A stretch of DNA of 64,000 nucleotides, from NCBI GenBank assembly GCA_004022145.1, contig RCNU01000008.1, one strand, 5' to 3'. Shown here piece after piece: positions 1 through 25,712 of the stretch. The notes under the pieces were generated by a model. The model worked only from the letters and a program-made list of their open reading frames with translations, searched no databases and was not told where the DNA came from. Source of the DNA: Paecilomyces variotii (taxonomy: Eukaryota). Both the position numbers and the translations under genes were made by a program. Each line of letters starts with the position of its first letter. Positions within the stretch are counted from its first letter, which is position 1.

Positions 1-946
1 ACAACGAGATTGTCAAGGAGACCTCCAACTTCATCAAGAAGGTCGGATACAACCCCAAGAGTGTCCCCTTCGTCCCCATCTCCGGTTTCCACGGTGACAA
101 CATGCTTGAGCCCTCCGCCAACTGCCCCTGGTACAAGGGTTGGGAGAAGGAGACCAAGGCCGGCAAGGTCACTGGTAAGACCCTCCTCGAGGCCATTGAC
201 GCCATCGAGCCCCCGGTCCGTCCCTCCAACAAGCCCCTCCGTCTTCCTCTCCAGGATGTCTACAAGATCTCCGGTATTGGAACAGTGCCCGTCGGCCGTG
301 TCGAGACCGGTATCATCGCTCCCGGCATGGTCGTCACCTTCGCTCCTTCCAACGTCACCACTGAAGTCAAGTCCGTTGAGATGCACCACCAGCAGCTCAA
401 GGAGGGTGTTCCCGGTGACAACGTTGGTTTCAACGTGAAGAACGTCTCCGTCAAGGAGGTTCGCCGTGGTAACGTCGCGGGTGACTCCAAGAACGACCCC
501 CCCATGGCCGCCGCCTCTTTCAACGCTCAGGTCATCGTCCTGAACCACCCTGGTCAGATCTCGGCCGGTTACGCTCCCGTCCTTGACTGCCACACTGCCC
601 ACATTGCTTGCAAGTTCTCCGAGCTCCTCGAGAAGATCGACCGCCGTACCGGAAAGTCCACTGAGGACCACCCCAAGTTCATCAAGTCCGGTGACGCTGC
701 CATCGTCAAGATGGTTCCCTCCAAGCCCATGTGTGTCGAGTCCTTCACCGACTACCCTCCTCTCGGTCGTTTCGCCGTCCGTGACATGCGTCAGACAGTC
801 GCCGTTGGAGTAGTGAGTACGTATTTCCCTTTAAAACCCAGAATTCGTGTTCAAAAACTAATAATTCCGTTACAGAGTCCGTTGAGAAGTCCGCCGGTGG
901 TGCCGGTAAGGTCACCAAGGCCGCCCAGAAGGCCACCAAGAAATAA
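1..946 (+). CDS. tef1: Translation elongation factor 1-alpha, 3' part (5'-truncated by the window); exons <1..816 and 876..946
   Basis: Translation contains [53 protein letters not shown]. Intron gtacgt(817)...tacag(875) restores [26 protein letters not shown]. Confidence 0.98.
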
Positions 947-3241
947 GCGGAGAAACACGGCAGAATACGGGAGACATGGGTCATGTGAATCATGTAATGA
1001 TCACGATGCAAAAACTCCGAGCTACTTCTGTAGAAGCTTAGACAATTATGAAATGATGTTTTCAATAATCCTTTTGAGACTTGAGTAGATTGTATTCGCG
1101 CGTAGACCGTAGCTAAGATTTGTCTCGGTGAGTAGTACAATTGTTAAGGTACATCATTACTATCATATATGATACGAGTACTTATGTGCTCCATGTGTAC
1201 GCCATGAGTTCCCATAAGAATAGCCTCGATGCTCAACTGCAGTCACACCCTGTATAGTAGGCTTAGTAGCTAGAGCAAGTAAATTAAATACTAGAGATTA
1301 ATCCCTGTAGATTAACCGGGTTTGAGTAATCTTGGAGCTAATGAAGATGCTTGATTGAGTTAACTACCTGTTATCTGGCCATTACTCTGCTGACTAAGCT
1401 GGCTGCTGGCGCTGGCGACCGCTACTGGAGCCCCCAGGGGCACCGAAATATCTTCTTATTTCTATGCGAATAAGTTGTATTAGAAGAACACAGAATCCAT
1501 TTCAAGACCTATTAATAGCATCCTCTGATACGGGCATGCATAGCCGTATTATAATGTCTTTCTTATCTTTTAACTGTCTGGTTAGACAGACCACCAATCC
1601 TGGAAGTTGCTCGTTTACATTGCCATTAAAAGCGTGCTCATTATGCGGATCTTGTACCGGCACAAGATCTTAGAGGAGTAATGCTATATATGTCCACAGT
1701 TACGTAGACGCGAATGGCTCACTAAAAGAAATGGTGAGGTCGGCAGACCAATGCGGAGCGGTCCCAGTTTGAGATCAGTTTCTGGCATAAGTACTATATT
1801 CGAGAACTTTTGTTAATAGTGAAACGGAATTAACAAATGCTAGTTATATGGCAAGTCTGACCTGTGGGCAGCATGGCAGGGCATGTTGGACGTTGCGACT
1901 GGTATTAGTTCCACTCGCGATATAATTACCTCGCCAAAATATATGAGTTCTTTACCTAGACTCCTTAATACAGAACTATTTGCATAAAGCTGTTACTCTT
2001 AGTCTACGATATTTCCAGTTAGGAGTAGTAGTAGCGCTCGATTTAGCTGCTCTAGCTACTCAGCTCGCTATAAGTTTTTCTCTCTTATGTAGTAGATCTA
2101 CAAGTAGCGTGATAAGTAGCAGTATATTCAAGACTGTACTGTACATACATGCATTGTTCCAGTCGCACTCTGCTGGTCACGTGACAGTTCCTTGTCGCCC
2201 TTGGGGCTAAGCCGCTCCGCGGTGCGATACCTCAGCTCTATATAGCGATATGGAGTGCGCTTTACATCGGGTGATATGTACTTCTTTCTGTTCGACGATC
2301 TCGAGAGTCTAGAATATATGCTTGTATTCTGGCTCTTCAACTATTTGCACATTTTGGAAACAGAGTGGGCAAAGATGAGTATAAGTCTGCGCAGTTTGAG
2401 AGAACACAACAAGGCAAGAACCGCCGTCGTTGGCACAATCGTTAAAGTTATGTCAAAACGTTCTACCACGCTCTAATCTGCTTCAGACCTTGGACTATTT
2501 GTGTATCTCTCCCCGACTCTTCTCTCTCTCTCTCTTTCTTTCCTTTCTTTTTTAACTGAAGGAGTGGGAGCTTATAATACCTAGGTACCTAACCTATTAG
2601 GGAAGAACACATAGTAGATGGCCCATACCACTAAAGCCACGACTAGCGCCAGGTAAGGAAATAAATCCTTTGAAGTCATAGAATAAATAGTTGATGTTGA
2701 AGGTACAGACTCTATCTGCGCCTGTTTCTGTTCAGATTGACAGAACCTACATTAATAGGTATGTATACTCATTTACCTTGTATAGATGTGCTAATGTCCG
2801 GCGCCGCTGACGCGTTCCATGTGGATGGATTGAATCATGCGCGAGACGCGTGATGGCAGACGCGCTTGCTTTCACCTTATGTCGAGTGTGCCAGTGCTTT
2901 CTTTCTTTCTCTCCTACCCACCCACTCCGTATTATATCTCTAGTCTCTCCCCGTGTACTCTGTTCTCTACTGTCGTCGTACGAAACGAGCGTTACCAAGT
3001 TTAATCACAAGAACCAACCTTTACTCTTCTGCTTACACCAATACACGCACGCGTCTGTTGATCTGTTTTCGATCTGATGAGAATCGATGACTCGCTGTCG
3101 CCAGAACACGAGACACACCAGATCGATACTTCGATTTGAAACTAGGTAACGTCTCAGGCTCTTCCGCGCCTATACTACTGCAGTATCACTATTACAATAA
3201 CATTAATCACAGGAAAAGGCTTACAGACCGTCTGTGTTCAA

Positions 3242-3329
3242 CCTTCTACCAGGGAGGTATCAAGAGAGATAGCTCTGTCTGGTGAAGGGTCAGATGGAAG
3301 CCGCCCGGGTGAGCCATTCTCACACCCAT
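3242..3329 (+). promoter_or_regulatory. Conserved structured leader element, copy A (upstream of GIY-YIG gene)
   Basis: ccttctaccagggaggtatcaagagagatagctctgtctggtgaagg...cccgggtgagccattctcacacccat is near-identical to the reverse complements of 16530-16619 and 22841-22931. It folds into a long hairpin plus a small hairpin over a GTGAGC donor-like site. Confidence 0.75.
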
Positions 3330-3896
3330 GATACTACTACTTTTTTTTTTGTTAGTCTTTCTATTCCTTTTTCCCCCTATGTTATTTTTGCAATTTGAGT
3401 CAGAAGAGATGTCATGCTACGTTACAATCATTCGTTCGAGTATAAGGTGAGGCTTGCCCGTACCTAACAAGTGAACATGGATCCTCTTATTTCTGGATAA
3501 CTGGCTGCACTGAATCATTCTTGGTTTACAATTTAGAGCGATACTACAATGCCTGTTGATCCGGACTTAGGTTGCTAGTGACGCATCTCCCTTTACCTGG
3601 ACCTTGAGAATCAGTGATCGAATAATTCACCGCAATGATGGAATTCCATCAAACATTTGGTAAGGCATAGCCCGACGAGCCAGTTAGAGAAATACTGAGA
3701 TTATATTATTTTTACAGAACCGATGGATAGCAGCAATATCGTCCACACGTGATGCTGCAGTTTTCTCTCCTCCTAATATGGAAGTGCCCCCACAGAGGCC
3801 GGACCCTCACTCTCTCCCCTCTTCTTCATCAAATCGACTTTCCCAGGTAGACAAGAGGTATCTCTCAATGCGACTTTCGTCTCAAACTTCATCATC

Positions 3897-5745
3897 ATGG
3901 CCGTCCAGATGCATGAAAGATTCCAGGAACGTGTTTTGCAAACTCTCAGTTCCCTCAGGAGCCTTGAAATGTCAGATGAGTGGAATATTACTCTACAAGT
4001 CTGGGACGATGAATACCTTCTCTCCTACTTCAATACATATACAGCAGAGCCTTTAAAGCACCTATTAGATACACATAGTCCTCCTACGTTTGAAGATTTG
4101 AAAACTCTCGACTGGCTGGATACTACTGATGCTGGGGTATATGCCCGTCTTATTTGGCCAACAATGGAAAAGTCCACTCCACATATCTATGTTGGATCAG
4201 CAACGTCTACAATGGGTGGATTATCGAAGAGGAAGTTAGATCATGAGTATCGTCCCATAGCACAACAGTAAGGATACTAATATATTATTTTGACTAATGA
4301 CTAACATTGACAGATGTGCATACTATAAGACATTGATGAATCAGCCCGGAGTTCCACGTACTTCCAAATTCGTTACAATATACACAATGGACTGGGGTTT
4401 ATGCTCAATTGATGATATAAATTTGAATCGAAAATTATGTTTGCTAGCAGAAGCTGTCTTTACTGCTATGCTGGGTGGATACATGCCAGTAGTAGACAAA
4501 CCTCTGCAACTGGCTTGCCCATATGGGGATCCCAAAACTGTATTCGACTGGAGGGGAACATGCACCCATTCTTCTCTCTCTGAAAGTCAGCGGCTTCTAC
4601 ACATACACAAAAAAGCGAAGAATTCCGCCAGTTCGAAACTCCCATGGTTCAAAGTGAGATCGGGAGCTCGGAGGAGGAAGGACCTTACTCCAGAAGAACT
4701 TCAAGCATGTCGAGAGAAAGACAAACTAGCCATGCGGGAATATCGAAAGAAGTTTCGACATCTACTCAAAGCAAGGAAAGCCAACCGTACCCCTCAGGAA
4801 ATAATAGAGCATAAAGAAAAAAAGAAGCTCTATCAACGTCGATACCGCAAGGAACATGCTATGGAAATTAAGGCGCGTGAAGCACTACTTCCTCCAGAGG
4901 TAAAAAAAGAACGTGCCGAAAGATCTAAACTTCGAACACAAAAGTCACGCTTGAAAAAACGCCTTGCAAACCCCAAACCTCCGCGGATCATACCTCCTCA
5001 CAGAGTTAAAAGAAACGCGGACCGGAAAAGACTGCGAGATGGTGACGTGGACTTTAAAAAGATCAGTATGCATGGAACTAGAGTCAAGCGCGCAAGAGAC
5101 GCTCTGAACAAGCTCAAAGTTGATGGTGTTGGTGGCAAGGAACTGGACGAAGCCAAGAAGAAATTCGCAATAGCATTCGTCGATCGGTACAACTTGATGG
5201 TCAACTTGGGGCGCCCTGTCAAAGAAAAGCCAAGTCAAGAGCAATTCGACCTAGCAGGACCCAGCGTGCAACCAAACAACAGCAAGTCTGCTGTTGTTTC
5301 TACAGGAGACGAAGTGGATGAATGTAGCGAAGAGGAAGACATCGATACGTCGGAGGAAGACATCGATACGTCGGAGGATGAAACTTCGGACAGCGAGGAT
5401 GAACTGGACACGGATGATGAGGAACTGTTTATCATTCCCCATGGACCCAACAAGGAAGGCAGCATACCCAAGAACGAATCCACCGTACCCCGCGATGCTC
5501 GAATTGACAATCATCTCGCCCCAGCCCCCGAAATGGTCAGTCCCTGGACGATAGCTGCCAAGACTACTGTCAAGAAGCAGGAAAAATCAAAGCCGTTCTT
5601 ACGCATGGCAAATGGTCCTGCTCTAAGCCACGAGATGACCACGCCCTGGACTATAGCGACGGACGCATTTCGCAGACAGCAGACGATCCTGGGAAGATCT
5701 CTCGTTAGGAACGAGTCTCCTTCGAGAAAACGAGTGAAACGGTAA
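3897..5745 (+). CDS. GIY-YIG family endonuclease (~600 aa); exons 3897..4267 and 4314..5745
   Basis: DAGVYARL...HIYVGSATSTMGGLSKRKLDHE matches the GIY-YIG core (GxY...YxG...R...H), with a downstream LAE that could supply the catalytic Glu. A 46-nt intron gtaagg...ctaac...cag joins the two ORFs in frame. K/R-rich helical repeats and an acidic tail follow. Start codon uncertain. Confidence 0.8.
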
Positions 5746-6779
5746 CGGTGGCAGTATGTTTGTGTCGGCTTTTTTTTTACACATGTATTTTACCGCTTTT
5801 GTACTACTTACGGCAAGGCCGGTCCAAACCTGCATATTGATATTATATCTTAATCTGAGCCAATCGAGTCCGGGAACGCACTTATATCCTAAGATCCCAG
5901 AAGGGGGAAGATGTAAAGAGCCGTCTGTATAGAACTGCTTTACTTTCTTATAGTAATGGTGTATATGAGTTGTCAACTTCGAACAAAGAAGTTTTGTGCA
6001 ACGGACAAGATGTGTCCGTCTCTCGGGAGCTCGCAGCGGGTAGGTTGTCGATTGATTAGTAGAATATAATATGTAATGCAGAATAACTGAAACTCGGTGA
6101 ATGAACATGTGTGAAGATCTAGGATGACGGAAGCAAAGATTCTGAGAAAGCATATGAAAAGGGAATGATCTCTGGATTGCTTGAAGAACTAATTGACTCC
6201 GAAATCTACCAGCTATTCATGCTCCTCGACTTTACACAAATGCCTCGGCTGTTCTGAACTGAGCTGAACACATAATTAAACTGATCCATGGTCCCTCTCC
6301 CGTCTTTAATGATTCCATGCAGGTCGATGCAGGCAGCTACCCGTTACAGCTGTTACCCTGTTTGCATAGGGGACACAGCAGCGGAACGCAGCAGGTTTGC
6401 AGCTCGCCCCTGCAGGAGACGCGGGATCTGACAACATGGAGCCAGTTCTTTGAACAGTGAAGATACAGCCGCCACTTACAGAGCAATTAACCGTAGCATT
6501 GGACATTGACGGTGACGCGAATTCCCTGCGTAATACCGAGTCAGAAGTGATTGTAAATGTGTGGTGCATTCATAAGATATTACCCCTCATTTACGGCTTT
6601 AAGAATCGCTAGTTTTTACACCAAATCTGACCTTCTCTTTCCCCAAACTTTATACTACGCTTTGAAGTTTGAGTGCATTATGACTCTTATATATATACAC
6701 CGTTCTATATACATACCAGCATCTTTATTAACTCTCTCTTTCAATACCTGAAGGTAGACAGTCAGCACTTCCTCACAGA

Positions 6780-8070
6780 CGGGTCCATTCTGGTCGAAGC
6801 CTTTGCAGTGTCATCACTATATTGGGGAGACTTAGAAGGTTATTCCCAGGGCCGGCACTTGCTATAAGCATAGGAGAGTTCGACGAGACAGTTTAGAGAA
6901 GGTAATTGCTGAGACTCTGCGAAGATAAATTACCAATGAGCATCGTTAACAAGGCCGCCGGTGAAGAAGGCAAACTATCTCTATAATGAAGATCGCGATT
7001 CAATGCATCCGGAATTGGTGACAGAACTGTTCTTCAACTTCATAAGGCCAGTGTCTGAGGATACTGAACCATCACGGATCTGGAAGAATATGTGTGGAGA
7101 AGTCATATGGCGCAACAACCGACTTCTATAGCACAGGTCTCCGTTATGGCTACTTGTTCGCGCTGGCATACGATTGGTTAGATAACGAATATCTGCGAGA
7201 ACGAGTTATCTTTATATTTATATTTCGAACATTAGCAGGCTGTCTAGTCAACGCTTTTATAAAATTTTTTGAAAGAGCCCTGAACGCTGGCTTCGAGGTA
7301 AGCAGAGAAAGCAAACGTTTCCCTTTTGATGTGCATAACTGACATATCCAAAGGATCAACCACGCATACTGTCAATTCGCCTGAATGTGACCACCGGTGA
7401 CTCTACTCTATTTAACTTGACATTAATCTTCACTTGCTGAGTTTACGCTCATTTGTACGAAGTTTCCATGGCTCTTCTAGCTCTACTGACTCGAGTTCAT
7501 TCACTTATCTATCAAGGGGAAACGCTGTCATCGTTATCGACCATTTCCTGGAAAATGTCGTCTTCCCCCTACACGCAAAGCATTTCAGAACTAAATTACA
7601 GATGTCGGGTTGGGATATCCCTCTGTACAATGACAATCAGACCTCACCGTCCAGTGATGATACTGGGAATATTGGAAACAGAAGAGGGTCCTCACATCTT
7701 GTCCTTGATATTCAATCACGTCGTGTTCCCACCAAAGCTTCCACCCAAGATAATCAACATGTCATTTCCTTCCTGTACCTGCAGAGGTACAATGAAGTCG
7801 GACACATAGTTCCTATAGACGATATTACAGAACCGAAGAGACATGAAGCTGAGCTCAGTCAATCATTAACTCTCGGACTGAACCAAATTAAGGATCACAC
7901 AGTGCAAGGTACGTATTTATTTTGCTCCCTATATTATCTATATTTAGTTCTTCTGCGCACAAGTTCTAATGCATCTTCTCTAGCTATAATGAGATTATAA
8001 ATAAAATAAGAGCGCGCCGTGGCCAACGAAGCTGAAGAAAGAGAAGTGCAACGCCCATATCTTCTTATCC
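6780..8070 (+). pseudogene. Fragmented relic of a large DUF6606/DUF3638/DUF3645-type fungal gene
   Basis: Motifs recognised across broken frames: GRLRRLFPGPAL, KKANYLYNEDRDSMHPELVTELF, EVIW..*HRSPLWLLVR (6780-7180); DHFLENVVFPLHAKHFRTKLQMSGWDIP (7540-7622); LIFNHVVFPPKLP (~7705-7745); *ERAVANEAEEREVQRP (~8007-8057). Family assignment is from memory of these motifs. Confidence 0.65.
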
Positions 8071-8149
8071 TCTATATACCACCTATTATCAAGAGAATGC
8101 AGCGCTTTAACTGTCTCACCTACTATTATATTCCCGAGTCTACCTATAG

Positions 8150-8720
8150 AATAACCCTCTATAGCTTCCTGTTAAAATTGGTATATTAATAAGAAAGAAT
8201 ATACTTTAAGCTTTTAAATATATAAGTTTAATAGATTGCTTTTAGTCTTAATAAACTAAAGTTAAAATATTGCTTAAATTTATCTAAGAACAGTATTTTT
8301 TTTATTGTTCTGGTTAAAATATCCTATATACCCTAATAAAATTTATATATCACAGTCTTCTATCTGACGCAGGCCAATATAGATAATAAATAGCCAACAG
8401 ATTTACCGAGGCGTTAGGATAGATTAAATCTAAGGCATTTCTCACAGTATTATGCTTTACGCTAAGGGGCAGATAGTATTGAATCGCTTTAATACCTCTA
8501 TTTCTGGAAATTATTTCAAAAATTTCAATAATGCGGCTTATACAGTTCCAGGGCGGGGGGTATAATAATATTAGACAAATTATACGCTCTAGTATCTAGC
8601 AAGATATCAACGCCTAATAAACAAGAAGGCCAAGGATACTCATATTATTTTAACAGATATACTTCGGCATTTTTACTATCCACATTAGACGATGTCCAAT
8701 GATAATTATAAATGATATAT
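8150..8720. other. AT-rich, TpA-rich patch typical of RIP-mutated sequence
   Basis: Runs such as cttttaaatatataagtttaatag and ataaactaaagttaaaatat; no open frames, unlike the GC-balanced flanking genes. Confidence 0.6.
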
Positions 8721-9084
8721 AAGACAGCCGGTCAGCAGCAGAAAGCTTGCGAAGAAGAAAAGAAAAAAAGGGTATTCCCCATCTCATATTCCAATACTAC
8801 ATTGTGCCTTTCTCCAGCAAGCTCACATAATGGTTTACAGGTCTCTTCTGGGCCAATGGGCCGGAAAGCCTGACGATTGCAGTTACTCACGCTCTCTATA
8901 CCAAAGGAAGATGCTCTTACATTGTAAGAGGCCATCTGCGGAGATTGATCTTGATCTTTTTTAAGACGCCGGGTCCGCTGTATAGACCTCCGAAAAGGTG
9001 ATTGTCCCCAAGGACGCAGCCTTAGCCTTTCTAGCTCTACTGATTCAAGCCTATTCATTTATCTATCGATATAAAAGGCAAACG

Positions 9085-9612
9085 GATCGTCTAATCTTTG
9101 AAGCGGCATCATAGTCGACTGTGGAGTCATCGAAGCTCGAAACTGGGACTTCTTCCTTCAAGCACACATTGCCGCCCTCTAAGGAACCGCGCGATCAGCG
9201 CACTACCACATCGTCCACGATGAGATATTCCACCCTGGAGCATTCACTATTCACGAGTGATAAGTCGACTTCTCGGAATCTCCCCTCAGTCGTTCGACTT
9301 TTCCATTTGTCTTATTATCACATCATGGGATTACCAGTTCTCAATGGATGCGGTTTGGTTTTCGTGCTTTAAATAAAACGTCCATCATTCGTACCACGAA
9401 TTTCATCGACTGTAACTAGGAGACTTTCGAGGCCAGGAGACTCGAACAAGGTTGTTCTTCCATTTCTTTCTCTTCGAAACCTTCCGACACGGCCGACGTT
9501 CTCGAGGATCTCACGCACAATATGTGCTATCTCTTCGACCGCGCTACCAAGGCCGTATATCTGCCCACCAGCATACTATACAGATCTGACCTGCGAGCGT
9601 GCCCAATGTTAT
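9085..9612 (+). pseudogene. Argonaute (PIWI domain C-terminus) pseudogene fragment
   Basis: IVDCGVIEARNWDFFLQAHIAAL*GTARSAHYHIVHDEIF (to ~9230) and ADVLEDLTHNMCYLFDRATKAV/ICPPAYYTDLTCERAQCY (9492-9612) match conserved fungal QDE-2-like PIWI motifs. One stop (CAA>TAA), one frameshift and ~260 bp of unrelated sequence lie between them. Confidence 0.9.
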
Positions 9613-10211
9613 GCCTGGGCTCCGGTCACGGAAGATGAGCTCTCATATATTGCCCTTGGTATTCAATCGCGTCGAGTTCCCACCAAACGTTCCAGGCACA
9701 TCAGACCATTTTGGGTTTGTTTGATTGCTTAATACATACAAGCAATGTGTTTAAGATGGTTAAAATCCTATCCTGCTAGCCGACTATTGATTTTTCCCTT
9801 ATATGGAAGACTCCCTCAATCATACTACCTGTTGGACACCGAACGGTAAAGTTCATAACTACTCCGATTCTCTCCTTATTCTTCGCGGAACATTAGCGTC
9901 ATATCAACGATGTTCTGAGAAAACAGTGACATCTCCATTCTGCCCGTATACTCCAGAATGTATCGCTTTGTGAGCAGTATAGTATATATGCATCCGAGTT
10001 AAAGAGAGTTCGGGGATCTTAGCAGACGAGCAGTATTATATTGTTGAGTCCGGTACATAGGGAGGAATCCGTCGAGACAATTCAAACAACTATGATCCGT
10101 TGTATTCATCTGGGATATGAGAATACCGCTGTTTTGATGTACAAATCTGTCGGCGTATGTTAAACATTCTCCTTATTTGTTGCCGTACCTCTGTTACCTC
10201 GTGAGCAACAT

Positions 10212-12023: not shown

Positions 12024-12379
12024 GTCCTCAAAAAGTTGCCTATTAAAGGAACGTCCTGACTCTAAAGTACAGTGGCAATGATTTTGTGTATCATGTCTCG
12101 AACTATTGCAAACTTATACTTATCTTTCCCTACTCTGTTTCACATGTGTACATGGATGGAGAACTAGGATCCGAAGATACAGTTCATTCGTGGCTAACTA
12201 TCTCTGTCTGTAATATCTTAGACAGTGCTAGCTCCATACAGTCAATTTCCTCCGTTATGAACTGATCTTCTTTCCCGGCCCACAGGATCCATGTCAGTGT
12301 CGTTGATCCATCTCCAGTCTCATTCTCAGACCATCGCTCTTCTGCCTGTTTTTCGTCTTGCGTGGTGGTCCGCGTGTAG

Positions 12380-12421
12380 GTAGTCGGTAGTCGGTAGTCG
12401 GTAGTCGGTAGTCGGTAGTCG
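12380..12421. repeat. (GTAGTCG)x6 heptamer microsatellite just 3' of helicase 1
   Basis: Read directly from the sequence. Confidence 0.95.
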
Positions 12422-12477
12422 GTAGTAGGTGTACTCGGTTGTCGATCGTCCTTGTTGAGGTTACACTCATGGCCTAC

Positions 12478-15400: not shown

Positions 15401-16211
15401 TAGCAAGGGTCGCAGTATTCTCCGTTCTGGTCTCTCGAGAAGATGGGTCTGCACACGAGATCAGAGACCTCGCGCTTCTGGACATCCGGGCCTGCGTGTA
15501 AGTCGAAAACAAGTGAAGCCCTGTGAACAAGGTTCACAGGATGCCACAAGCCTCTCTGGATGTTGCGGGTGTTCCTGACGCAGATTTCGAAGACTAGCTT
15601 CGGTGCGACAGGGCCCCCAACTATCTCCATCGTCACACTTGCACCGTAGAGACTGGCTCCAGGAACAGTGGGGTACATTTGCCTGTTGTCCGCAAGGACA
15701 AACTGAACGTGTCGTTTTCTGGGCCCCAGGAATCCAGTGGACCGACGGTGCTCCAACGGCACGAGGACCCAGTCCTCCACAGACTTATTTCCAGCAGCGG
15801 GCTTGGTCCTTTCTGCCGGGAACGTACCCTGATAAAAGTTGCATTAACCCATGGTCTCTCAAATAAGCCAATCTATTGCACTTACCATCCACATATCACT
15901 GGTCATCACAGTGTCTGACGCTATATCCTACCCTATGTTAGATTTGCATAACATGATTTGAGTTGCCGACCATCCGTGAGAGCGTACCTTGCCGTTATCA
16001 GTAGAGGCACCGGTGTTAACAGGAACACCGGTATCAGCAGGTGATTCTATTTCCATTTCCGTGTTGTCCCATTCGCTTTGAATATGCTTCAAGAACATAA
16101 CATGTCAGTGTTTGCAAAATATAGAAATGACACACACAAGAGAAGGTTTCTGATGGTATAACATACCTGTTCCTGTTCCTGAGAGACATGACCATAATTA
16201 AAAGCATCCAT
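12478..16211 (-). CDS. Upf1/DNA2-NAM7-like superfamily 1B helicase (copy 1, apparently intact, ~1170 aa)
   Basis: Motifs EGFPGCGKST, VSPSNASVD, ADEDGQA, GGDRHQLPP, SLFDRL, QHRMHP, ITPYSEQ, TVDSMQGHE, RCNVAITRA. Predicted upstream exons 16211..16167, 16086..15988 and possibly 15927..15886 splice in frame to 15828..12478. C-terminal QE repeat. Confidence 0.88.
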
Positions 16212-16227
16212 TTTTGGTCTTGCTGAG

Positions 16228-16412
16228 AAGATGGGAGATGCTAGATGGGAGATGCTAGATGGGAGATGCTAGATGGGAGATGCTAGATGGGAGATGGGAG
16301 ACGGGAGATGGGAGATGGGAGATGGGAGATCGATGATGGATGATGGGTGATGGATGATGGGTGATGGGTGTAAGAAGTGAGAAGATGGAAGTGAGAAGAT
16401 GGAAGTGAGAAG
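16228..16412. repeat. Heptamer-based array (GATGGGA/GATGCTA/GAAGTGA) in the predicted leader intron of helicase 1
   Basis: Read directly; pyrimidine-rich on the sense (minus) strand, ending at the acceptor cttctcag (16223). Confidence 0.85.
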
Positions 16413-16529
16413 TGAAAAACGAGGGATTTAAGCAGGGGAAGACAGGGAGGACTGGCAGAAATAAACAAAGAAAATTTTTTGCACTGAAGTGTTTGTTGGA
16501 TTAAAAGAGTAAAGAAGTGAATTAGAAAA

Positions 16530-16619
16530 ATGGGTGTGAGAATGGCTCACCCGGGTGGCTACTCGCTGCCCCTCTTCACCAGACAGAGCTATCTCTCTTG
16601 ATACCTCCCTGATAGAAGA
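16530..16619 (-). promoter_or_regulatory. Conserved structured leader element, copy B (upstream of helicase 1)
   Basis: Reverse complement is tcttctatcagggaggtatcaagagagatagctctgtctggtgaaga...cccgggtgagccattctcacacccat. Confidence 0.75.
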
Positions 16620-18462
16620 TTGCCATGAAAGGCTAGAGCAGGTTTTACCGCTGTTTTAGTGATAGAGGCTGTTTTCTGTTATAGAAACTGTCGTATGGAG
16701 CTCTGCAGGAAAGGGGGGGTCTACATGCCTGACTGACTGCTCAAGACGAGGACACATATAGCGATGACGATTGTTTGCAGGTTGTAGTGATGGGAGATAG
16801 TGGTCCCTTCAAGACTTCAAGAAATAAGGGCATGCATTGATGTAGCGGATAAGGAGCCATGACTGCGACTGCCTAAAAGAATGGCAATACGTCGTGGCGA
16901 TCAATAGGCACTCGTTGGATGTATCGGGAGAGGTGAGTCGACGTTGGAGCTGGTCGACTTGATACCTAACTTGCAATCCATAATAAGGAGTTCGTCTTCA
17001 TAATGACTATAAACGCGCTCATTTGATGAAGATCAGACCAGGTTGTAATAGTAAAGAAAATTAGCAGCGGTAATGACCAGCACAAGAGGCTATTTAAGGT
17101 GAAAATTCGACGGAGTTCTCCGCAGGGTCCCCCCCCCCGAGAGGTTTTCGTAGTGAATTAGAGATACAATGAAAGGTGACGAACCTAGAAAGTTGTGGAA
17201 TGGTCTCAATTATACGGGGTAGTCCGATTCGCTCGAGCTTCACACCTGAGAAGCGTCTGTTTTTGGCCTTGCAGGTGTTTACGAGGTCTGGCGCGTGCTC
17301 ATAGTCTGCCCTGTCTTCGTGGAACTTCGTTCGTGGGAAGTCTCAACTGCTGGGCAGAGAAGGAGAAAAGTGGTATGTAGAAGTCTGTGTTTCTCTAATG
17401 CTAAAGGCCTCGCTACATACAGGAGGTCATGTGACATAAGCTCATGTGAAGGAGGGACGTAACGTCAACGCTTAATCCCACTTTTCGTGTACTTTTCTTA
17501 AGTAGACCTTAGCCAAAAAGTCTACACGATACAGCTAGGGAACTTCTAGTCGCCAGATTCAGTGATGAGAGATCTGGGAGCGCCCCTGCATCGTGCAATG
17601 AACTGAATACCAAATGATGATTAGGAAAGCCAATTGACTGGGGGTAAAGACCCGGCCTGACATAGCTCAAGCAGTCAATAGATTGCAACGAAAAGCAGCG
17701 AATCGCGATGACGACAAGATCACGGCAGCCAAACATCTATTTCGATGTCTAGGATAGCATACTGAATACGAGATCCTACACGGCAAATTGAAGTCTACGT
17801 CGATTCTAGTCATTAAGATAACCGGATAGGAAGTGGACGGAAGCACTTGTCATTCTATTCATGGGATTACCGATAAGCTGGTCTAGCAGGAAGCAACATG
17901 TTGTATCACCGTTTGTAATTTTGGTCGAATCCTGCGCTTGAGATTTCGTGATATTATATGTATAACTTGCATTATGATAATGCTTTCAGATAACCTCAAT
18001 CGCTATTAGACGAGGCTACTAATGTAAATACAGGATTGTATTATCGACGCTGAATTGTATATCAGAATAATTCGAAGTGATTGTTATTCAATAACTGTTC
18101 CAGTAAAGTAGAGTGGCCTTAGGATTTCCATAATGCCCATGTTGTCAATTTGATAATCGATCGTCTTGTCGCGATTTATTGAGATGAGCCTCAAACTGTA
18201 AGAACTTTCTAACAATAACTCGGGAGTACTAATTTATAGTGTGGTCGGGTCTACGTCTCGTTATTAGGAATAAACCACGAACGAGCTCACTGTTGGTTAG
18301 GATTGCATTTTATTGAACTTCAGACCTAACTAAAACGCTCGAAAGTTGCAACAGTCTGCCATACTGGTCCGTACTCCGGAGGTTTTCTCTGTTTGCACGA
18401 AGAGAGCCTAGATACCACCGACGCGCCACGCTTGCCGCCCTTTTCGTTCTTCTTCTTCTTCT

Positions 18463-18464
<2 letters not shown>

Positions 18465-18501
<37 letters not shown>
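18465..18501. repeat. Poly-T run (~37 nt; poly-A on the minus strand)
   Basis: Read directly; lies ~230 bp downstream of the helicase 2 ORF end. Confidence 0.9.
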
Positions 18502-18734
18502 CCCTCCTTCTTCACCCCATGACGGTTGTTTCAAAAGATCGATAGAGAAAACTCAGCAGCAAGTTCGCCTTGGTCTGTTCGGCCCGACCTTGATCCGCTT
18601 CAATAGATATCGGCGTCCCTCTGGTCCGCCCGTGTGTCCGCTCCAGAGATACCATCAGACGCTTCCTGAGGCTGGCCAAGATCCTGAGCTTGCTCATCTT
18701 GACGCTCAGCGTTCGCTGCTTCGTGTGTTTCGGC

Positions 18735-21700
18735 CTAGGTGTACTCGTCCGAGGTAGCCGGCTCTACATATACCGACTGAAGAGGGTAGCAAACATCCTT
18801 CTTAGCCAGGTAGCGCCAGAACTCCAGAACCTCCGGCGGCGGCTTCACATCACCCTTTTGCTTAGAATTGGCTTGCTGCTTGGAAGCATAATCACCACTC
18901 AGCATTCCCACGTTTCCCACATTGATAAGACAAGATCGCGCTCTGGTGATACCAACATTGCACCTATTGTTATCAACAGTAAACCCGAGATCGCTAGGTC
19001 TGACAGCCTGGGAAACAACCCAGTCGAAGATAACACAATCCGATTGATGCCCCTGCATTGAATCAACGGTGGCAACTTTCACCATGTGCTTCCACTGAAC
19101 TCCCTTTGTTGCAGCGAGCTCTATTAGGGCCTTGATGTACCTAGACCGCTGCTCGGCGTAAGGGGTGAGTATGGTGACTGAGTATGTAGTAAAGTCAAAC
19201 TTAGCAGCCATTAGGTGCCGGATGAAATCTACAACGACCTTACAATTGTGGCCATTGTACCTGGAGTTGCTAGCTTCTTCTATTCGATATACTCTGTTCT
19301 TAATGTTGAGAGCGATGAGCGACATGTTGTCATTAGCAAAAGCCATCTGGCAGCCCGCACGGGCGTTAATCTAACCTCGCAGGTTCTGCTCAAAGATGGG
19401 ATTGATTGTGAGATCATGCACCGATGGATCATCCTCCAACATTCCTGAGTATGTGAACTCGCATGGGAATCGGGAGATCTCGGGTCTCATCCTATGCTGC
19501 TTTCCGATAATGTAAGACGGAAAGCCGGTCCGCAGCAGACGATTATATAAAGAGCGGGTTAATTGATGAGAGAACTCATTTATACCTGGACTTTGGAAGT
19601 CTGAGACGACAAGAGGCGGAAGCTGATGGCGGTCTCCACCGCGGATTGAGGCCTTGACGAACTTTGCCTGATTGAGTGACACTATAGGAATCCACGTGTT
19701 TGGCTCAACTGCCTGGCTATCTTCGTCGCTGATGACGACGATACCTTTGGTGTCTGTACCGAAGTGCTTCCGAATTCGCGGTGAACCAGCCAGGTTGTCC
19801 GTGCAAGCGACGATGCGGGTATTCTTGACGATTTCGTTCGCGATAGCTTCATAGGCTTTGCGGAAACGTGATCGCTGTTCCTTCCATAAGTCCAACTTCT
19901 GGATTCGCTCGGAATTGCTCGGAGATTCAGGTTTTTCAGGAGGGCAATCAATCCAGTCACGGAACACGGAGTACGCTTCAATCACCTCACGTGTATCCTT
20001 CTCAGCGGACTCATCCTCGTCGTTGTGATCAGAACCGAGGGCAGGGTCCTCTTCCAATTCCTCATCTTCCTCCTGTCTGATACGTACAAGGAGCCTTTCT
20101 CCAGCAGCGAGTTGCTTCCTGGCGTGGCGGTCGACGTGAGAAAAGACTGAATACCTCAGATCGCCCTGTGCTTTCTGGTACTGGGAGTTTTTCAGAATCC
20201 CTAACAGATTGACAATCGAAGTTTTAAAGTCCTCTACCGATAGCTTATCGTCTTCATCGTCGACTTTCTTCCCAAATATGGACGTCCGTTCAATTGTTGC
20301 CTGCCGGATACAAACGTAGTCGATTTCGGGCGCCATCAACAGCAGTTCGGAAGTGAATGCGTCGACAGTAGCATTTGAGGGTGTGACGATGAGTATATGC
20401 AGTCCAGCCTTGTGGCACAGAAGGGCAAGTGCTGCAAGAACAGTGGTTTTTCCGCACCCGGGGTATCCTTCGATGAGTCCTACACCACCTCTCAGTTGCC
20501 TGATCATCTTGAACACAGCCAATTGCTGGTCAGTCCAGTTCTTCAGATGCAGAACCGCGTCGAATGCTGCCTTGACAGTGACTTCGTCAAGTTCAGCGAA
20601 AGGGTCAATGATCTCCATGCCGCTCAACTCCTGGTTCAGGAAGACAGAGGTCCAGAGGTGAGAAGCAGTATTGTGAAGGAGCTCGAGACAGTTTACCTGT
20701 CTCTTGATCGGAGCGTTATTGTCAGAGAACTCTACATTTCCAGTACACCAACGGAGTCGATCTCCAGGAGATGTGAGCAGACCCCTTGCCTTCTTGAAGA
20801 TTGATGTGCCGTGTATTGCGATATAAATATCACCCTGCTTGATTGACGCATAGTCGGGGATGACAATGCCGGCTACGGTCTTGTGGTTGAAACCTTCTTT
20901 GGGACAGAAGGTCACAGTCACTGGCGTGTTGTCGGGCACCACCACATCAGAGCCGCGCATGATCTCAGGGACAAACTTCTCATTGAGCCCTGCCTTGTCG
21001 ATCTTGACCACAGCAATGACAGACTTCCCAGAATACGAGACAAAACCGATCTTCGATTGTTTCTTCGAAAGTCGGTTCAGGTGAAGCTTTTGCACTCTGT
21101 CCTCCAGCACCGCGCCGTACGCGAGCCTAACATGACCGTCGTCAAGGTTATGGAAGAAGTCGCTTGCTGGGAACGCGACAGGGTTCCACCTCTGGAAGAC
21201 GTCCTGGCGAGATGCGAACTGTCCGTATATACATCGGATCAGATCGGACCTCGCGCAGTACGGGAAGAACGCTCGCTGTAGAGGTCGTTGGCGGCTGATG
21301 GATCGAAGGGCATCGCGCATACCCTTCAATCTGTCGCCAGCCACGTCCTCGGCGTCGACATACATGCGCACACGAAGAATCCGTGCTTCAGTAGACGTGT
21401 CATACGTGAAGCTGTTCATGTGGCGAAGAAGGTCCACCGTCTCGACATCGAACTGCTCGTTAGTGTGGCGTAGGCCACACGAAACGCCGCCGTTCGTCTT
21501 GAACTTGATGTCGATGTAGTTTGACTGCTCGGTCGTTTCTGTCCCTTCAGCGCCCGGCGCGGCAGATGTCTTGTCCTCCCACTCGAATTCGGAGACCTCG
21601 GATCGATGAGGGCCCATCATGCTCGAACGAGCAGGTGGGTGCAGATCGAACTCGAGGTATGCGGTGTGCATAAGGTTGATGGAGTGCATCAAACCTTTGC

Positions 21701-22281
21701 TTATGTCCTTGACGTTCCTGACGAAGACCTTGAATCGTATCTTCGCAGCCACAGGACGACCGACCACCGATATCCGAACGTCGCTTCCTTTGTCCTTGAT
21801 GAATGGTGTCTCTGGGATCAAGGAGCCGTCTTCTCTCACGAACTGGACAGAACGCGGCATCGGACCATCAAACAGGATGCGCTCTTCCGACTTCCTATTT
21901 CCGAGATCGCGGAGCATCTCCTCGTCCTCAGTTCCATCAAGACGCTGTAAGTTGTCAGTGGCAGATCTGTGGAGCATGTGTGTTTGGAAACTCACGGGGC
22001 CATTTTGTTCAATGACTGGATCTTGGACTAACTCTGCGGTATCCTGTTCGACGTGTAAGCACGATAGACCTATCTCGTTAACAATTTCTGCATGGGAACC
22101 TACCATTTGCATGGTTCCTGTCTCGACAGTTTCAGGTGCAGTCTCGGTCTGGGGAGCCTCAGTTTGGGGAGTCTCGCTTGGGATTTCCATATCCCATTCA
22201 GAAGTTCCAATCTGTTCGTGGTCTATTTAGTTTTGATCCATGGTGGATATGGAAAAGACTCTTGCTCACCGGATAAGCCAT
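18735..22281 (-). pseudogene. Upf1-like SF1B helicase (copy 2) interrupted by one in-frame TAG at 19373-19371
   Basis: Motifs EGYPGCGKTT, SDEDSQA, GGDRHQLPP, QHRMRP, LTPYAEQ, TVDSMQGHQ, RCNVGITRA. ORFs 19371..22190 and 18735..19346 are in the same frame; the TAG aligns with a Trp of copy 1. Predicted first exon 22281..22270 (MAYP), intron 22269..22212. Confidence 0.8.
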
Positions 22282-22325
22282 GATGTAGGATAAATTACCG
22301 GATAGTTCGCGAATGGAAAACCGGA

Positions 22326-22640
22326 GATGAAAGATGAAAGATGAAAGATGAAAGATGAGAGCAGAGAGCAGAGAGCAGAGAGCTGAGAGCAGAGAGCTGA
22401 GAGCTGAGAGCTGAGAGCTGAGAGCTGAGAGCTGAGAGCTGAGAGCTGAGAGCTGAGAGCAGGCAGATGAAAGATGAAGATGAAGATGAGAGATGGAAGA
22501 TGAGAGATGGAAGATGAGAGATGGAAGATGAGAGATGGAAGATGGAAGATGAGAGATGGAAGATGAGAGATGGAAGATGAGAGATGGAAGATGGAAGATA
22601 GAGATGAAAGATGAAGATGAGAGATGGAAGATGAAAGATG
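22326..22640. repeat. Heptamer-based array (GATGAAA, GAGAGCA/GAGAGCT, GATGAGA-GATGGAA) upstream of helicase 2
   Basis: Read directly from the sequence. Confidence 0.9.
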
Positions 22641-22840
22641 AGCGTTTCTAAGGGGAGACGACAGGGAGAGATGACAAAGAGAGACGAGAAGAGATGTAAC
22701 AAAGACGAGAAGACGCGAGGCGAAGAAGTGAGAAGTGAGGGATTTAAGCAGGGGAAGACAGGGAGGACTGGCAGAAAAAAGAGAATTCTTTGCACTGAAG
22801 TGTTTGTTGAATTGAAAGAGTGAAGAAGTGAATTAGAAAA

Positions 22841-22931
22841 ATGGGTGTGAAAATGGCTCACCCGGGTGGCTACTCCCTGCCCCTCTTCACCAGACAGAGC
22901 TATCGCCCTTGATACCTCCCTGATAGAAGAG
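22841..22931 (-). promoter_or_regulatory. Conserved structured leader element, copy C (upstream of helicase 2)
   Basis: Reverse complement is ctcttctatcagggaggtatcaagggcgatagctctgtctggtgaagag...cccgggtgagccattttcacacccat. Confidence 0.75.
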
Positions 22932-23759
22932 TGTCTTGAAAGACTGGAGCAGGTTTTGCCGCTATTGGTATCAGTGACGAAGGCTGTCTTCTCAAAGACT
23001 TCGCTATACGAACTATCGTATGTGGATTTGCGGCTGCGAGAATGACATACCTGAATAGCTGCTTGAGGCCTTTTCACGTTATGGATAGTGATCGTTGTTA
23101 AAGGCAACCGCAGTCGTTACTCCCATCTGTGGACTGTCTTGGATGAAGGTGATGGATTCTTCAGCCTTTGGGACGAGAAAATCATTGGTATCCTGTGGTT
23201 GCGAGGTCTAGGATAGGTGTCAGCTACAGCAAGAATATGGCTAATCGAGGGGGTAGCGACAGATGCCTTCTTAGATATATCTGACGAAGATCCCCTTTAG
23301 GGAACTGGGACACGAGGTTGTCAGAGGTTGAATCTTGAGAGGTGTGTCTCACCTCATAATCCAGCCAGCCCCCCCAAAAAGAGTGTAACCAGTCAAGCAC
23401 TTTCGACAATCAGGATGGTTTCAGCAGATCCGTTTGAAAACTATAAAGTTTAGAATTCAAATCATCCCATATGTGTACTCAGTGGCCACAGGTGGGGTCA
23501 GGTTGTAATGAGGCAGATGCACTGTGGTTAAAGGAGGTGGAAAGTTGAAAGAATTATGGATTCAGTGAGAGATATGCGAAGCAGGCACCGCTTCTACGGG
23601 GTTCTCCGCCCAGATTCTTTGGGAATATCCGCTTTGAGCAGTCTCGGTGAACGGCAGATCTTATTCACTCAAGTCCAATATCTGCTGGTGTCATTTCCAT
23701 TCATCAAGAAGCTTAGAGAGCATATATACGATGTTCTCTTCTACCTCTGGTGCCACTTC

Positions 23760-24341
23760 GTCTTCCAAACTGGCATGAAACTACTAATGCCGGGGTGCAG
23801 GCCCAACTCATCTGGCCTACTTTGGAAACTTCAACCCCACATATATATATATAGGATCAGCAACATCAATTATGGGTGGGCTGTCTAAGCGAAAAATTGA
23901 CCATGAAAGCCGCGAGATGGGAGCAAAGTAAGTACATTGTTTTGCCATAGAATAAGTTACTAATATGATATTTATAGATGTGCTTATGATAAGTGCTTAA
24001 TGCACCAGATTGGCATCCCACGGGACGCCAAATTCGTCACTCTATATAAAATGGATTGGGGCTTATGCTCTACGGATAATATCAACCTTAATCGCAAGCT
24101 GTGCTTGCTAGCGGAAGCTGTTTTCGCTAGTATACTTGGTGCATATATGGGAATAGTGAGTAAAGAGCTACGGATGACATGTCCGTACGGAGATCCCAAA
24201 ATAGTATTCGATTGGGCTGGGGCATGCACGCATTCATCCCTTTCAGAGTCGCAAAGACTTATAGGTAAGAATAAGCAACCAAAGGGCAGTACGCGTCAAC
24301 GCATACCAGGGAGTGACGAAAGAAAAACATCAGCAATATGA
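23760..24341 (+). pseudogene. Degraded paralog of the GIY-YIG endonuclease
   Basis: WHETTNAGVQAQLIWPTLETSTPHIYI/GSATSIMGGLSKRKIDHE, an intron at the same position (gtaagt...tag), then KFVTLYKMDWGLCSTDNINLNRKLCLLAEAVF...CPYGDPK...CTHSSLSESQRL. GVY has become GVQ, an (AT)n expansion gives a +4 frameshift, and the basic tail is missing. Confidence 0.9.
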
Positions 24342-25034
24342 TTCCATCATTGCAATCGGTCCTTGAGACGCATAAAGAACAAACAGATACTGATCCATGA
24401 GTGTTTCCTCTCATAAAGGAAAGTATTCGAAAAGAAAACGGGAGTTTTTGAAAAGCGCCTGACGCCTTGATCGTCTTGCAATATCGCATCAAGATAATTG
24501 ACCATTTTGGGCGCTCATTATAAGCAGAAGAGAATCCTGAACCTATTCTATATCCACTTGCTGCGGCAGCGCCTGCTAGATCATCTTCGCACTATACGAG
24601 CGAGCAAAAACGGCTCGTGTGGTTGGAGGAGTTGAAGGTGTGTATACCGTCCATACCTTGCCAGAAAGAACTTTCATGCTCTTGATGCGACAAAGCTGAC
24701 GAGCTCCCAGTCTGATTGCATGCAACTAAGAAATCATTGAACATGGGCTATGGTTCAGAGAAGTCGGTATTCTAGCACAGATACTAGGTATGGCAGTATC
24801 GAGAACGCTGAACGTGTACCCACCTTTGCACTGCCATTTCATGATATGTATTTAGTAGCAGCTCCTAGTATATCAGGGAAATTCAACTGCTTGACAGTAA
24901 ACCCTGCAGTTCATGATGCGAGATGTGCCAAAGTCCGGACTTGGTTCGTTTACCTTGCCTAAGTACGCGGACTTGCTCGAGCCACGAATGCCACGGGACT
25001 AAGTAGTTGCCGATACTTGACACACGGGTTACAG

Positions 25035-25316
25035 GCTACAACAGGTACAAGTCTACTCCTGACAATGCATTATTGAAAGTATCATTTTATGAAGTCTAAG
25101 CCTCTAGCTAAGTAGGTAGCTTAAAGCCTCGGAATCGTGATCGTCACATGACTCATATCTCCCCCATTCTGCCAGGTGTAACCGCTTATTTCTTGGTAGC
25201 CTTCTGAGCAGCCTTGGTGACCTTACCGGCACCACCGGCGGATTTCTCAACAGACTATAGAGAAAAATGTCAGTTTTTGAACACGAATTTGAGCGTTTGT
25301 AAAGGAAACTCACCTT
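25035..25316 (-). pseudogene. tef1: Inverted tef1 3' fragment (AAG + last intron + last exon + 3'UTR)
   Basis: Reverse complement reads AAG|gtgagt...aattcgtgttcaaaaactgac...tatag|TCT GTT GAG AAA TCC GCC GGT GGT GCC GGT AAG GTC ACC AAG GCT GCT CAG AAG GCT ACC AAG AAA TAA, with a 3'UTR alignable to 947-1110. Confidence 0.95.
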
Positions 25317-25712
25317 ATTGCAATTTATTATGTTACAGCGCCTTTTCTTTTCTTTTTGATTCTCTTTGCCGATCTGATGAAAAAGGTTTTCATCCAGCTA
25401 ATCTGACACCATACTTGAGTACTTGACCGATTGGTCGGCTCGTCTGGCCCGTGCGCGGATTCCAACATCGGGGAATCGCCGCCAGCTTAACATCACGTTC
25501 GGACGTTGTGGCATGAATTATGCTTTCCTTCATCTAATTTCGTCTAATTGGCAAGCACTGAATCACCAATTCATTCGACAATTGGGAGGAAGTTCTGCGT
25601 TCTGCTGCTGTGTAGGCTTGGGTTGTTTCGGAGCCTTCTGACGACGGACTCATTAAGGACCTTCGTGCATAGAACATGAGTCGTCTACTGACTTGGCGGC
25701 CTCTCCCCTACA

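Follow-up and report, generated by a model that had tools for sequence, protein, structure and literature searches.

A candidate homing element with a GIY-YIG-like nuclease beside the nuclear tef1 gene of Paecilomyces variotii

What kind of element might settle next to an essential gene of a fungal nucleus and carry a spare end of that gene with it? This question is raised by a 64,000-nt stretch of Paecilomyces variotii DNA (contig RCNU01000008.1, assembly GCA_004022145.1), hereafter called the window, which begins inside tef1, the gene for EF-1alpha. An island of about 24 kb (~1.1-25.3 kb) with lower G+C content lies between tef1 and a series of ordinary genes, and contains an intact nuclease gene (GIY1), a dead paralog of it (GIY2) and an inverted relic of a tef1 3′ end. 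We lean toward the view that the island is probably an element of the WHO type known from yeasts, or an intronless-homing element, with a GIY-YIG nuclease and with tef1 as its host gene. The 24 kb would then probably be both the graveyard and the current residence of a homing-type selfish element. Somewhat more doubtful, but still a serious possibility, is that this is the first homing element of eukaryotic nuclei with a GIY-YIG endonuclease, a counterpart of the WHO elements in a filamentous fungus, engaged in an arms race that runs through silent tef1 codons and a hypervariable nuclease domain.

The window opens within the penultimate exon of tef1 (3-816, + strand), which runs off its 5′ end. 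The translation of 3-815 is that of EF-1alpha with the C-terminal end ...RQTVAVGVV, as supported by Pfam (PF00009/PF03144/PF03143) and by homologs that reached at most 93% identity in a search with the tef1 of the window, whose matches did not include the EF-1alpha of P. variotii or P. lecythidis itself. Splice analysis placed a donor GTACGT at 817 and an acceptor CAG at 873-875, the sole splice that preserves the usual protein length, and thus defined a last intron of 59 nt (817-875, + strand) that lies in phase 1 within a Lys codon (A816|AG876-877). The last exon follows (876-946, + strand, stop codon 944-946) and after it a stretch of 3′ untranslated region (UTR; 947-1094, + strand) that, by blastn and alignment, is common to the resident gene and the relic. 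In two metagenome runs (X1 and X3), tef1 contigs of other, more abundant fungi join the two exons directly (805-880), indicating that the last intron is absent from those fungi.

The relic lies at the opposite edge of the island (25046-25317, - strand) and comprises a Lys codon (25315-25317), an intron-like segment (25257-25314), an exon (25186-25256) and a UTR-like segment (25046-25185). Positions 842-1094 and 25289-25046 were matched by blastn at 76% over 256 nt (E 7e-41), an inverted repeat of 113 nt links 876-988 to 25144-25256 with 88% complementarity, and an 18-nt block of the intron (842-859) is identical in the two copies, so that the resemblance is far above chance. Inspection by eye and global alignment showed that the likeness reaches back to GTGAGT at 25309-25314 and to the AAG (Lys) codon before it, and then ends. 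The start of the relic's homology corresponds to 811-817 of the resident tef1, directly after a recoded patch described below. No further tef1-like pieces were found in the window besides the resident gene and the relic. The first-pass annotation, a reading of this DNA from its letters alone, had proposed an intact GIY gene about 3 kb downstream of tef1, a dead GIY-YIG paralog, and a second, inverted tef1 3′ end whose homology begins at the last Lys codon and intron; each of these was recovered in our analysis, and so was the GIY-YIG-like nature of the nuclease.

Divergence between the relic and the resident gene is distributed very unevenly. Among non-coding bases, 50 of 194 differ: the intron accounts for 17 (of 58 aligned) and the UTR for 33 (of 136, with 18 additional gap positions). 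For the exon the count is 5 of 72 (Fisher p=5e-4), and each of these five changes is silent, an outcome with a probability of ~0.001 under neutral decay, or of 0.012 if the decay consists of C>T/G>A changes only. Since the few exon differences are all silent and the flanks are far more diverged, the copies appear to have diverged within a working tef1. Judged from the sequence, then, the relic is evidently not an in-place duplicate, and both 3′ ends would have diverged inside functional genes. Such a pattern is what a swapped-in 3′ end predicts, and it seems hard to reconcile with a simple breakpoint duplication, which fits poorly. Repeat-induced point mutation (RIP) was considered as a source of the divergence between copies and rejected, as TpA/ApT is 0.5-1.1 in every island segment; the 89 transitions and 97 transversions that separate GIY1 from GIY2 further rule it out.

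The start of the relic's homology abuts a spot at which tef1 varies among strains. Four public runs were mapped on positions 1-20000 of the window: X2 consists of isolate contigs, X20 of raw reads, and X1 and X3 are metagenomes from different studies. In a 2778-nt contig of X2 (covering 1-919) and in the X20 reads, tef1 has two listed differences from the window over positions 1-788 (at 284 and 362) and then six within 789-809 (789, 791, 794, 797, 800, and 809). The resulting codon changes (CGT>AGG, CAG>CAA, ACA>ACC, GTC>GTG, and GGA>GGG) all leave the protein unchanged. Raw reads of X20 back the difference at 789 (32/32 and 8/8), and when eight single-nucleotide polymorphisms were placed at random, six fell inside 21 bp in 0 of 200,000 trials. 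A third allele occurs in low-depth contigs of X1 (depth 10.8) and X3 (depth 7.9), with changes at 789A, 791G, 797C, and probably 794, and with the letters of the window at 800C and 809A.

From these strain differences and from codon counts, we delimit the recoded patch as the last nine full codons before the intron (789-815, + strand), a candidate endonuclease target. Of the nine patch codons, four are non-optimal in the window and six in the X2 allele, vs. 12 of 262 upstream (p=9e-4 and 3e-6, respectively), and any upstream nine-codon window of tef1 has at most 3. Past the patch the divergence remains elevated, and X2 differs from the window at 3 sites in 810-919 and at a minimum of 10 listed sites in 975-1077. 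In the more abundant fungi of the metagenome runs mentioned above, the patch site reads GGT GTC ATC AAG. A short, multi-allelic and purely synonymous hotspot in an essential gene would be the footprint expected of selection acting on the DNA itself. A widely used reverse primer, EF1-2218R, presumably anneals at the patch. Another small cluster of non-optimal codons (GGA ACA GTG) occurs at window positions 279-287, within tef1, and contains the strain difference 284 A>T.

GIY1 is the first gene after tef1 (3897-5745, + strand), with two exons (3897-4267 and 4314-5745) separated by an intron (4268-4313), and it encodes a protein of 600 amino acids. Apart from known allelic differences, the spliced product is that of gene models in many public P. 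variotii assemblies (P0156, 600 amino acids, and P0160), and P0004 (593 amino acids) is 98% identical. The 704-amino-acid model P0160, from strain CBS 101075, extends beyond the stop of the other seven aligned forms, probably as an annotation artefact. Word-based protein searches for relatives gave few matches (3 in one search, because of low-complexity words, and 2 with residues 1-232), and an exhaustive HMMER search was used instead. It revealed a family of at least 151 clusters (50% identity) at E<=0.001 across Ascomycota, 50 of them at E<=1e-10. Among ten members that were looked up are ones from Aspergillus, Stromatinia, Phyllosticta, and Boeremia, and members also exist in Paecilomyces lecythidis and Talaromyces islandicus. 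Relatives of full length in Aspergillus and Talaromyces include KAL4880082, KAL3477915, CEN60042, KAL4911554, and CRG85867. Across 27 aligned homologs, conservation is complete or reaches at least 90% at GVY (80-82), YVG (98-100), R112, H116, and E170 (Y82, Y98, and G100 included), and the conserved Tyr of the GIY motif, Tyr-x-Gly, Arg, His/Tyr, and Glu are present in the order expected of GIY-YIG nucleases; the usual C-terminal Asn was not identified. Below the Pfam thresholds, 17 of the 27 matched DUF123 (best E 6e-4), which we take to be a member of the GIY-YIG clan, and one matched PF01541 (E 0.28). A profile run against PDB sequences found no GIY-YIG match, and the ESM Atlas returned Ascomycota clusters and one GIY-YIG cluster at 0.86, a lead only.

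The AlphaFold model of GIY1 has a predicted local distance difference test score (pLDDT) above 90 over residues 10-210, and the full model matches I-TevI with Z 7.2 over residues 78-210. When a domain-only model of a short homolog (P0015, pLDDT 91.6) was compared with 48,161 chains, the best was the catalytic domain of I-TevI (Z 7.3, rmsd, or root-mean-square deviation, 2.4 A, 89 of 92 residues aligned), followed by T4 EndoII (Z 5.4), the GIY-YIG domain of UvrC (Z 4.8), and R.Eco29kI (Z 4.2), with Z>=5 reached by 2 chains only. The P0015 model has the GIY-YIG fold, a three-stranded sheet with flanking helices (beta-beta-alpha-alpha-beta-alpha core). On the strength of these models, we accept GIY1 as a GIY-YIG-like nuclease whose nearest solved fold relative appears to be a homing endonuclease.

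Behind the N-terminal catalytic domain, GIY1 has a basic helical region (residues 233-345) and then a confidently predicted helical hairpin (residues 350-425, pLDDT about 85-95) that varies among strains. The comparison took in eight P. variotii protein forms, which represent no fewer than 16 contigs from assemblies of this species. Variable positions number 1/77 in residues 1-77, 7/155 in 78-232, 1/112 in 233-344, 30/86 in 345-430, and 19/163 in the acidic tail, or 9/344 before the hairpin (residues 1-344) vs. 30/86 within 345-430. A single allele, P0005, has 28/86 differences in residues 345-430 vs. 16/418 elsewhere (p=3e-13). Given this allele variation and the predicted structure, the hypervariable hairpin (codons ~345-430; 4929-5186, + strand) is a reasonable candidate for the part of the protein that reads DNA and so sets specificity. 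Neither the basic region, likewise a candidate DNA-binding part, nor the hairpin matched a known DNA-binding family, and no NUMOD or helix-turn-helix (HTH) DNA-binding module was detected in GIY1 by Pfam scans. In the acidic tail, a 21-nt tandem duplication (~5330-5372) adds an extra EEDIDTS in the window, P0156, and P0160; it is absent from the listed GIY contigs of X1, X2, and X3 and from the other five of the eight aligned forms.

The dead paralog, GIY2 (23768-24341, + strand), is 66% identical to residues 124-234 of GIY1, has a frameshift at a TA run in the YVG motif, and is cut off after about residue 234, and thus lacks the C-terminal ~360 residues. It is annotated as short open reading frames (ORFs) in several P. 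variotii assemblies (P0008, P0163, and P0164). Number, orientation and integrity of the GIY copies vary between strains. A 7243-nt contig of X2 follows the window at 99% identity through 2198-3794 and then enters a + strand GIY copy, in which identity to GIY1 is <80% over the 5′ half and rises to 93% over the 3′ half (4896-5776). The same contig holds a second GIY copy, inverted and truncated (3739-4952, 91%), which is joined towards 17600. X2 thus has two convergent copies, one of them truncated, where the window has an intact GIY1 and a dead GIY2. In the sister species P. lecythidis, two GIY fragments lie eight locus tags apart on one contig, one of them forming a fusion with a helicase-2-like piece (identities 78% and 65%). 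X3 departs little from the window across most of the island, with 3 to 8 differences in each 1-2.6 kb. The exceptions are the 2-kb GIY1 segment (46 sites), 18672-20000 (30 sites), and the tef1 patch, and this patchy divergence indicates that the haplotypes are mosaics. In X2, X20, and X3, moreover, an extra 31-nt piece of the last tef1 exon (878-908) sits between 1612 and opposite-strand 1125; it marks another rearrangement whose end coincides with the border between intron and exon.

We infer from these observations a course of events in which cleavage, the cut site, homing itself and the turning of the relic would be linked. GIY1, equipped with an I-TevI-like catalytic domain, a basic helical region and a variable hairpin, would cut the end of the penultimate tef1 exon (~789-816) in tef1 alleles that differ there from its own neighbour. 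After mating, the break would be repaired from the nuclease-bearing chromosome, and repair would copy the nuclease gene along with its cut-resistant tef1 3′ end. The host gene could escape through silent recoding, with EF-1alpha unchanged, and the nuclease could follow by changing its reading domain. Repeated rounds would leave several nuclease alleles, dead copies, and displaced tef1 3′ ends that decay downstream, and a later inversion (or a repair accident) would have flipped the relic. The last tef1 intron may itself belong to the protection of the target. More speculatively, the inverted tef1 ends that bracket the island could recombine, flip the island and swap the tef1 3′ end in use.

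Such a history has its closest parallel in the WHO elements of Torulaspora and Lachancea yeasts, whose host gene is FBA1 (Coughlan et al., 2020; PMC7282813). WHO elements resemble the present island in several ways: an endonuclease gene with its own transcription directly follows a host gene that is essential and strongly expressed; the endonuclease genes, some intact and some dead, form clusters that vary among isolates and contain genes in either orientation; an extra 3′ part of the host gene starts at a defined point; and on the 3′ side of that point host-gene diversity is far above the level on the 5′ side, and a short site changes fast, the sample being small here. WHO nucleases are related to HO and combine LAGLIDADG with a C-terminal zinc finger, whereas the nuclease described here has a GIY-YIG fold; therefore it is not a member of the WHO family and could be a functional analogue only. 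Further, the host here is a filamentous member of the Eurotiales and the host gene is tef1 rather than FBA1; the changes in the patch are all silent, whereas positive selection on the protein sequence has been reported for FBA1; and the relic is inverted in a cluster that contains helicase genes, whereas WHO fragments are direct. The putative site, at the boundary of an intron, is separated from the stop codon by ~130 nt, so that only 24 codons would be replaced. Known homing endonucleases of eukaryotic nuclei are all LAGLIDADG proteins, according to a recent study (Osborne et al., 2026; 10.64898/2026.08.13.744650).

Other selfish elements share some of these features. The free-standing intergenic GIY-YIG gene, the proposed cutting of a conserved neighbour in genomes that lack it, the proposed spread by co-conversion of flanking DNA, and a catalytic fold closest to I-TevI all recall the Seg proteins of T4-like phages, free-standing GIY-YIG homing endonucleases that practise "intronless homing." The present gene differs in being nuclear, eukaryotic and interrupted by a spliceosomal intron, and in the missing NUMOD/HTH modules; also, we know of no phage feature that corresponds to the displaced host-gene ends. 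In fungal mitochondria, homing endonuclease genes bring a replacement 3′ end of atp6, atp9, rps3 or cox. There, too, a GIY-YIG or LAGLIDADG ORF near the 3′ end of the host gene supplies a C-terminal piece and the old one is left downstream, but those elements are organellar and usually fused in frame, whereas GIY1 is nuclear, stands 3 kb away from tef1 and contains a spliceosomal intron of its own. Starship giant transposons are well studied in P. variotii, and the island resembles them as a strain-variable multi-gene insertion in the same species; however, it is only ~24 kb long and is bounded by tef1 3′ ends, not by Starship ends. A scan of the 20 largest ORFs of the window found no DUF3435 tyrosine-recombinase captain, and a Starship was rejected as the source. 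A literature search, which excluded supplements and subscription journals, found no description of a nuclear GIY-YIG homing element or of one at tef1, in line with the first-pass annotation, whose author knew of no such system.

Several observations weigh against a homing element at tef1. The relic stands inverted at the far edge of the island, with its presumed cut-site end towards the neighbouring gene, which calls for either one more inversion or an aberrant repair, because simple WHO-type homing predicts direct fragments. A GIY-free allele was not seen in the four mapped runs, and all listed P. variotii entries contain GIY1; of the strain comparison proposed in the first-pass annotation, variation in the GIY copies was thus confirmed and an empty site was not. 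The same annotation expected homologs of the nuclease to be linked to tef1, an expectation contradicted by the sole readable case: for 10 EF-1alpha clusters, Aspergillus cavernicola was the only relative with both accessions placed, and its GIY homolog (33% identical, truncated) is on a different contig from tef1. A linkage scan of metagenome contigs yielded 35 GIY pattern matches, none confirmed, and 0 matches to a DNA pattern of the last tef1 exon. Many members of the nuclease family are extended at the N-terminus by HTH or Myb-like sequences, and the majority may serve other functions or act on other targets. A Pfam scan of the GIY1 exons at curated thresholds gave no family, and Foldseek against PDB gave nothing at E<=0.001, with the UvrC GIY-YIG domain at rank 2-3 (E ~0.5). 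Few genomes supply the patch alleles, namely a single set of isolate contigs, one run of raw reads, and a pair of metagenomes in which strains may be mixed, and low diversity in 1-788 is expected anyway in a strongly constrained gene. Two helicase genes in the island, cargo in the first-pass annotation, have no place in the homing model. Some of this would suit a plastic, fast-changing and repeat-rich accessory island shaped by local rearrangements, in which nuclease and helicases are cellular or transposon-related and the tef1 pieces are by-products of inversions with duplicated breakpoints. The patch would then stem from gene conversion over a short tract, or from a complex mutation, with selection on EF-1alpha as the filter. 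An inverted relic is a natural product of staggered-break inversions, the inverted 31-nt exon piece stands at an inversion joint in X2, X20, and X3, and the unlinked A. cavernicola homolog agrees with such an origin, as do the high-copy repeats at ~1372-1450 and 6110-6433 (~8-10x single-copy depth in X2 and X20), the minisatellites and the presence or absence of segments within the island. We nevertheless regard this explanation as unlikely. An in-place duplicate at ~26% non-coding divergence should show many non-synonymous exon changes, whereas five differences were seen and all are synonymous, and local plasticity leaves unexplained three purely synonymous 21-bp alleles with rare codons, the abutment of the patch on the start of the relic's homology, and the adjacent I-TevI-like nuclease with its hypervariable domain.

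The two helicase genes suggest a different arrangement, a unit of two genes in which a superfamily 1 (SF1) helicase is paired with a GIY-YIG nuclease. It might serve in defence or genome surveillance, or be a DNA element that has gone unrecognised, and it would have been duplicated here with tef1 as no more than a neighbour or preferred landing site. Helicase 1 (12478-15780, - strand) is an intact Upf1-like ORF of 1100 amino acids (Pfam AAA_11 2.5e-22, AAA_12 1.2e-41), and helicase 2 (18657-22190, - strand), 40% identical to it and with its frame interrupted near 19347-19373, lies next to GIY2 in divergent orientation. A 450-nt segment upstream of both helicases is duplicated (16227-16677 vs. 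22496-22992, 77%) and a 90-nt part of it recurs, inverted, at 3239-3329 upstream of GIY1; the fusion of a helicase-2-like piece to a GIY N-terminus in P. lecythidis fits the same arrangement, and PADLOC matched the helicases to MkoA of the Mokosh defence system (E 1.4e-45 and 5e-13). The latter match, however, involves the generic Upf1-like core only, and GIY1 matches no PADLOC model. The intact GIY1 has no adjoining helicase, helicase 1 is absent from X2 and X20 (depth 0 across 12674-15341, with zero depth in several other segments as well), and no terminal repeats, target-site duplication or transposase were seen for the helicase/GIY island. As such a unit would also leave the tef1 relic and the patch unexplained, we consider it improbable. 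That the inverted tef1 piece or the order of the island is a mis-join of the assembly is scarcely credible: repeats do break short-read contigs in this region, yet no support for an artefact was found, 99-100% of the words of 700-6000 are present in the four runs, and the models of GIY1 and GIY2 are spaced by 4-5 accession numbers in CBS 101075 as well as in three or more further assemblies. Nor is the relic a collapsed repeat, because it is 24% diverged from the resident copy. Homing at tef1, as first suggested from the letters of the window, is partly supported: it gains from the anatomy, the fold, the selection on the relic, the patch and the polymorphism between strains, and it loses from the inverted relic, the lack of a GIY-free allele and the unlinked A. 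cavernicola homolog.

If a homing element does reside at tef1, it would be of a kind not yet described in the cell nucleus, and in a filamentous fungus. WHO elements have so far been a yeast curiosity, and replacement of the 3′ end of an essential gene would become a general strategy that has arisen more than once. Two further gains would be a gene-drive-like system of natural origin in the nucleus of a fungus amenable to laboratory crosses, and a clear case of selection on synonymous sites. Finally, tef1 is a standard gene for fungal barcoding and phylogeny, and replacement of its 3′ end would give that part of the gene a history of its own.

The remaining features of the island and its surroundings are of lesser weight. 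Ordinary genes begin at about 25.7 kb and include a C2H2/Zn2Cys6 transcription factor, a gamma-adaptin-like gene, MBOAT, Med15, LMBR1, and BAG. The first of them (25700-27172) has a C2H2-like motif at its start in addition to Zn2Cys6 and fungal transcription factor domains, and the relic is ~400 nt upstream of it, within its promoter region. Within the island, the segments at 1372-1450 and 6110-6433 have many loose ends and by appearance are pieces of a high-copy repeat or small transposon. A stop separates two same-frame ORFs of helicase 2 (19371-22190 and 18735-19346) and could be either a premature stop or part of a small intron. The end of helicase 1 encodes a long Gln/Glu repeat (QEQEQ...) in a 6/12-nt tandem array (12547-12708), and G/A-rich minisatellites of 7 and 14 nt (GAGATG..., GAGAGCT...), which lead into the duplicated 450-nt segment, occur upstream of both helicase genes (16222-16416 and 22296-22642).

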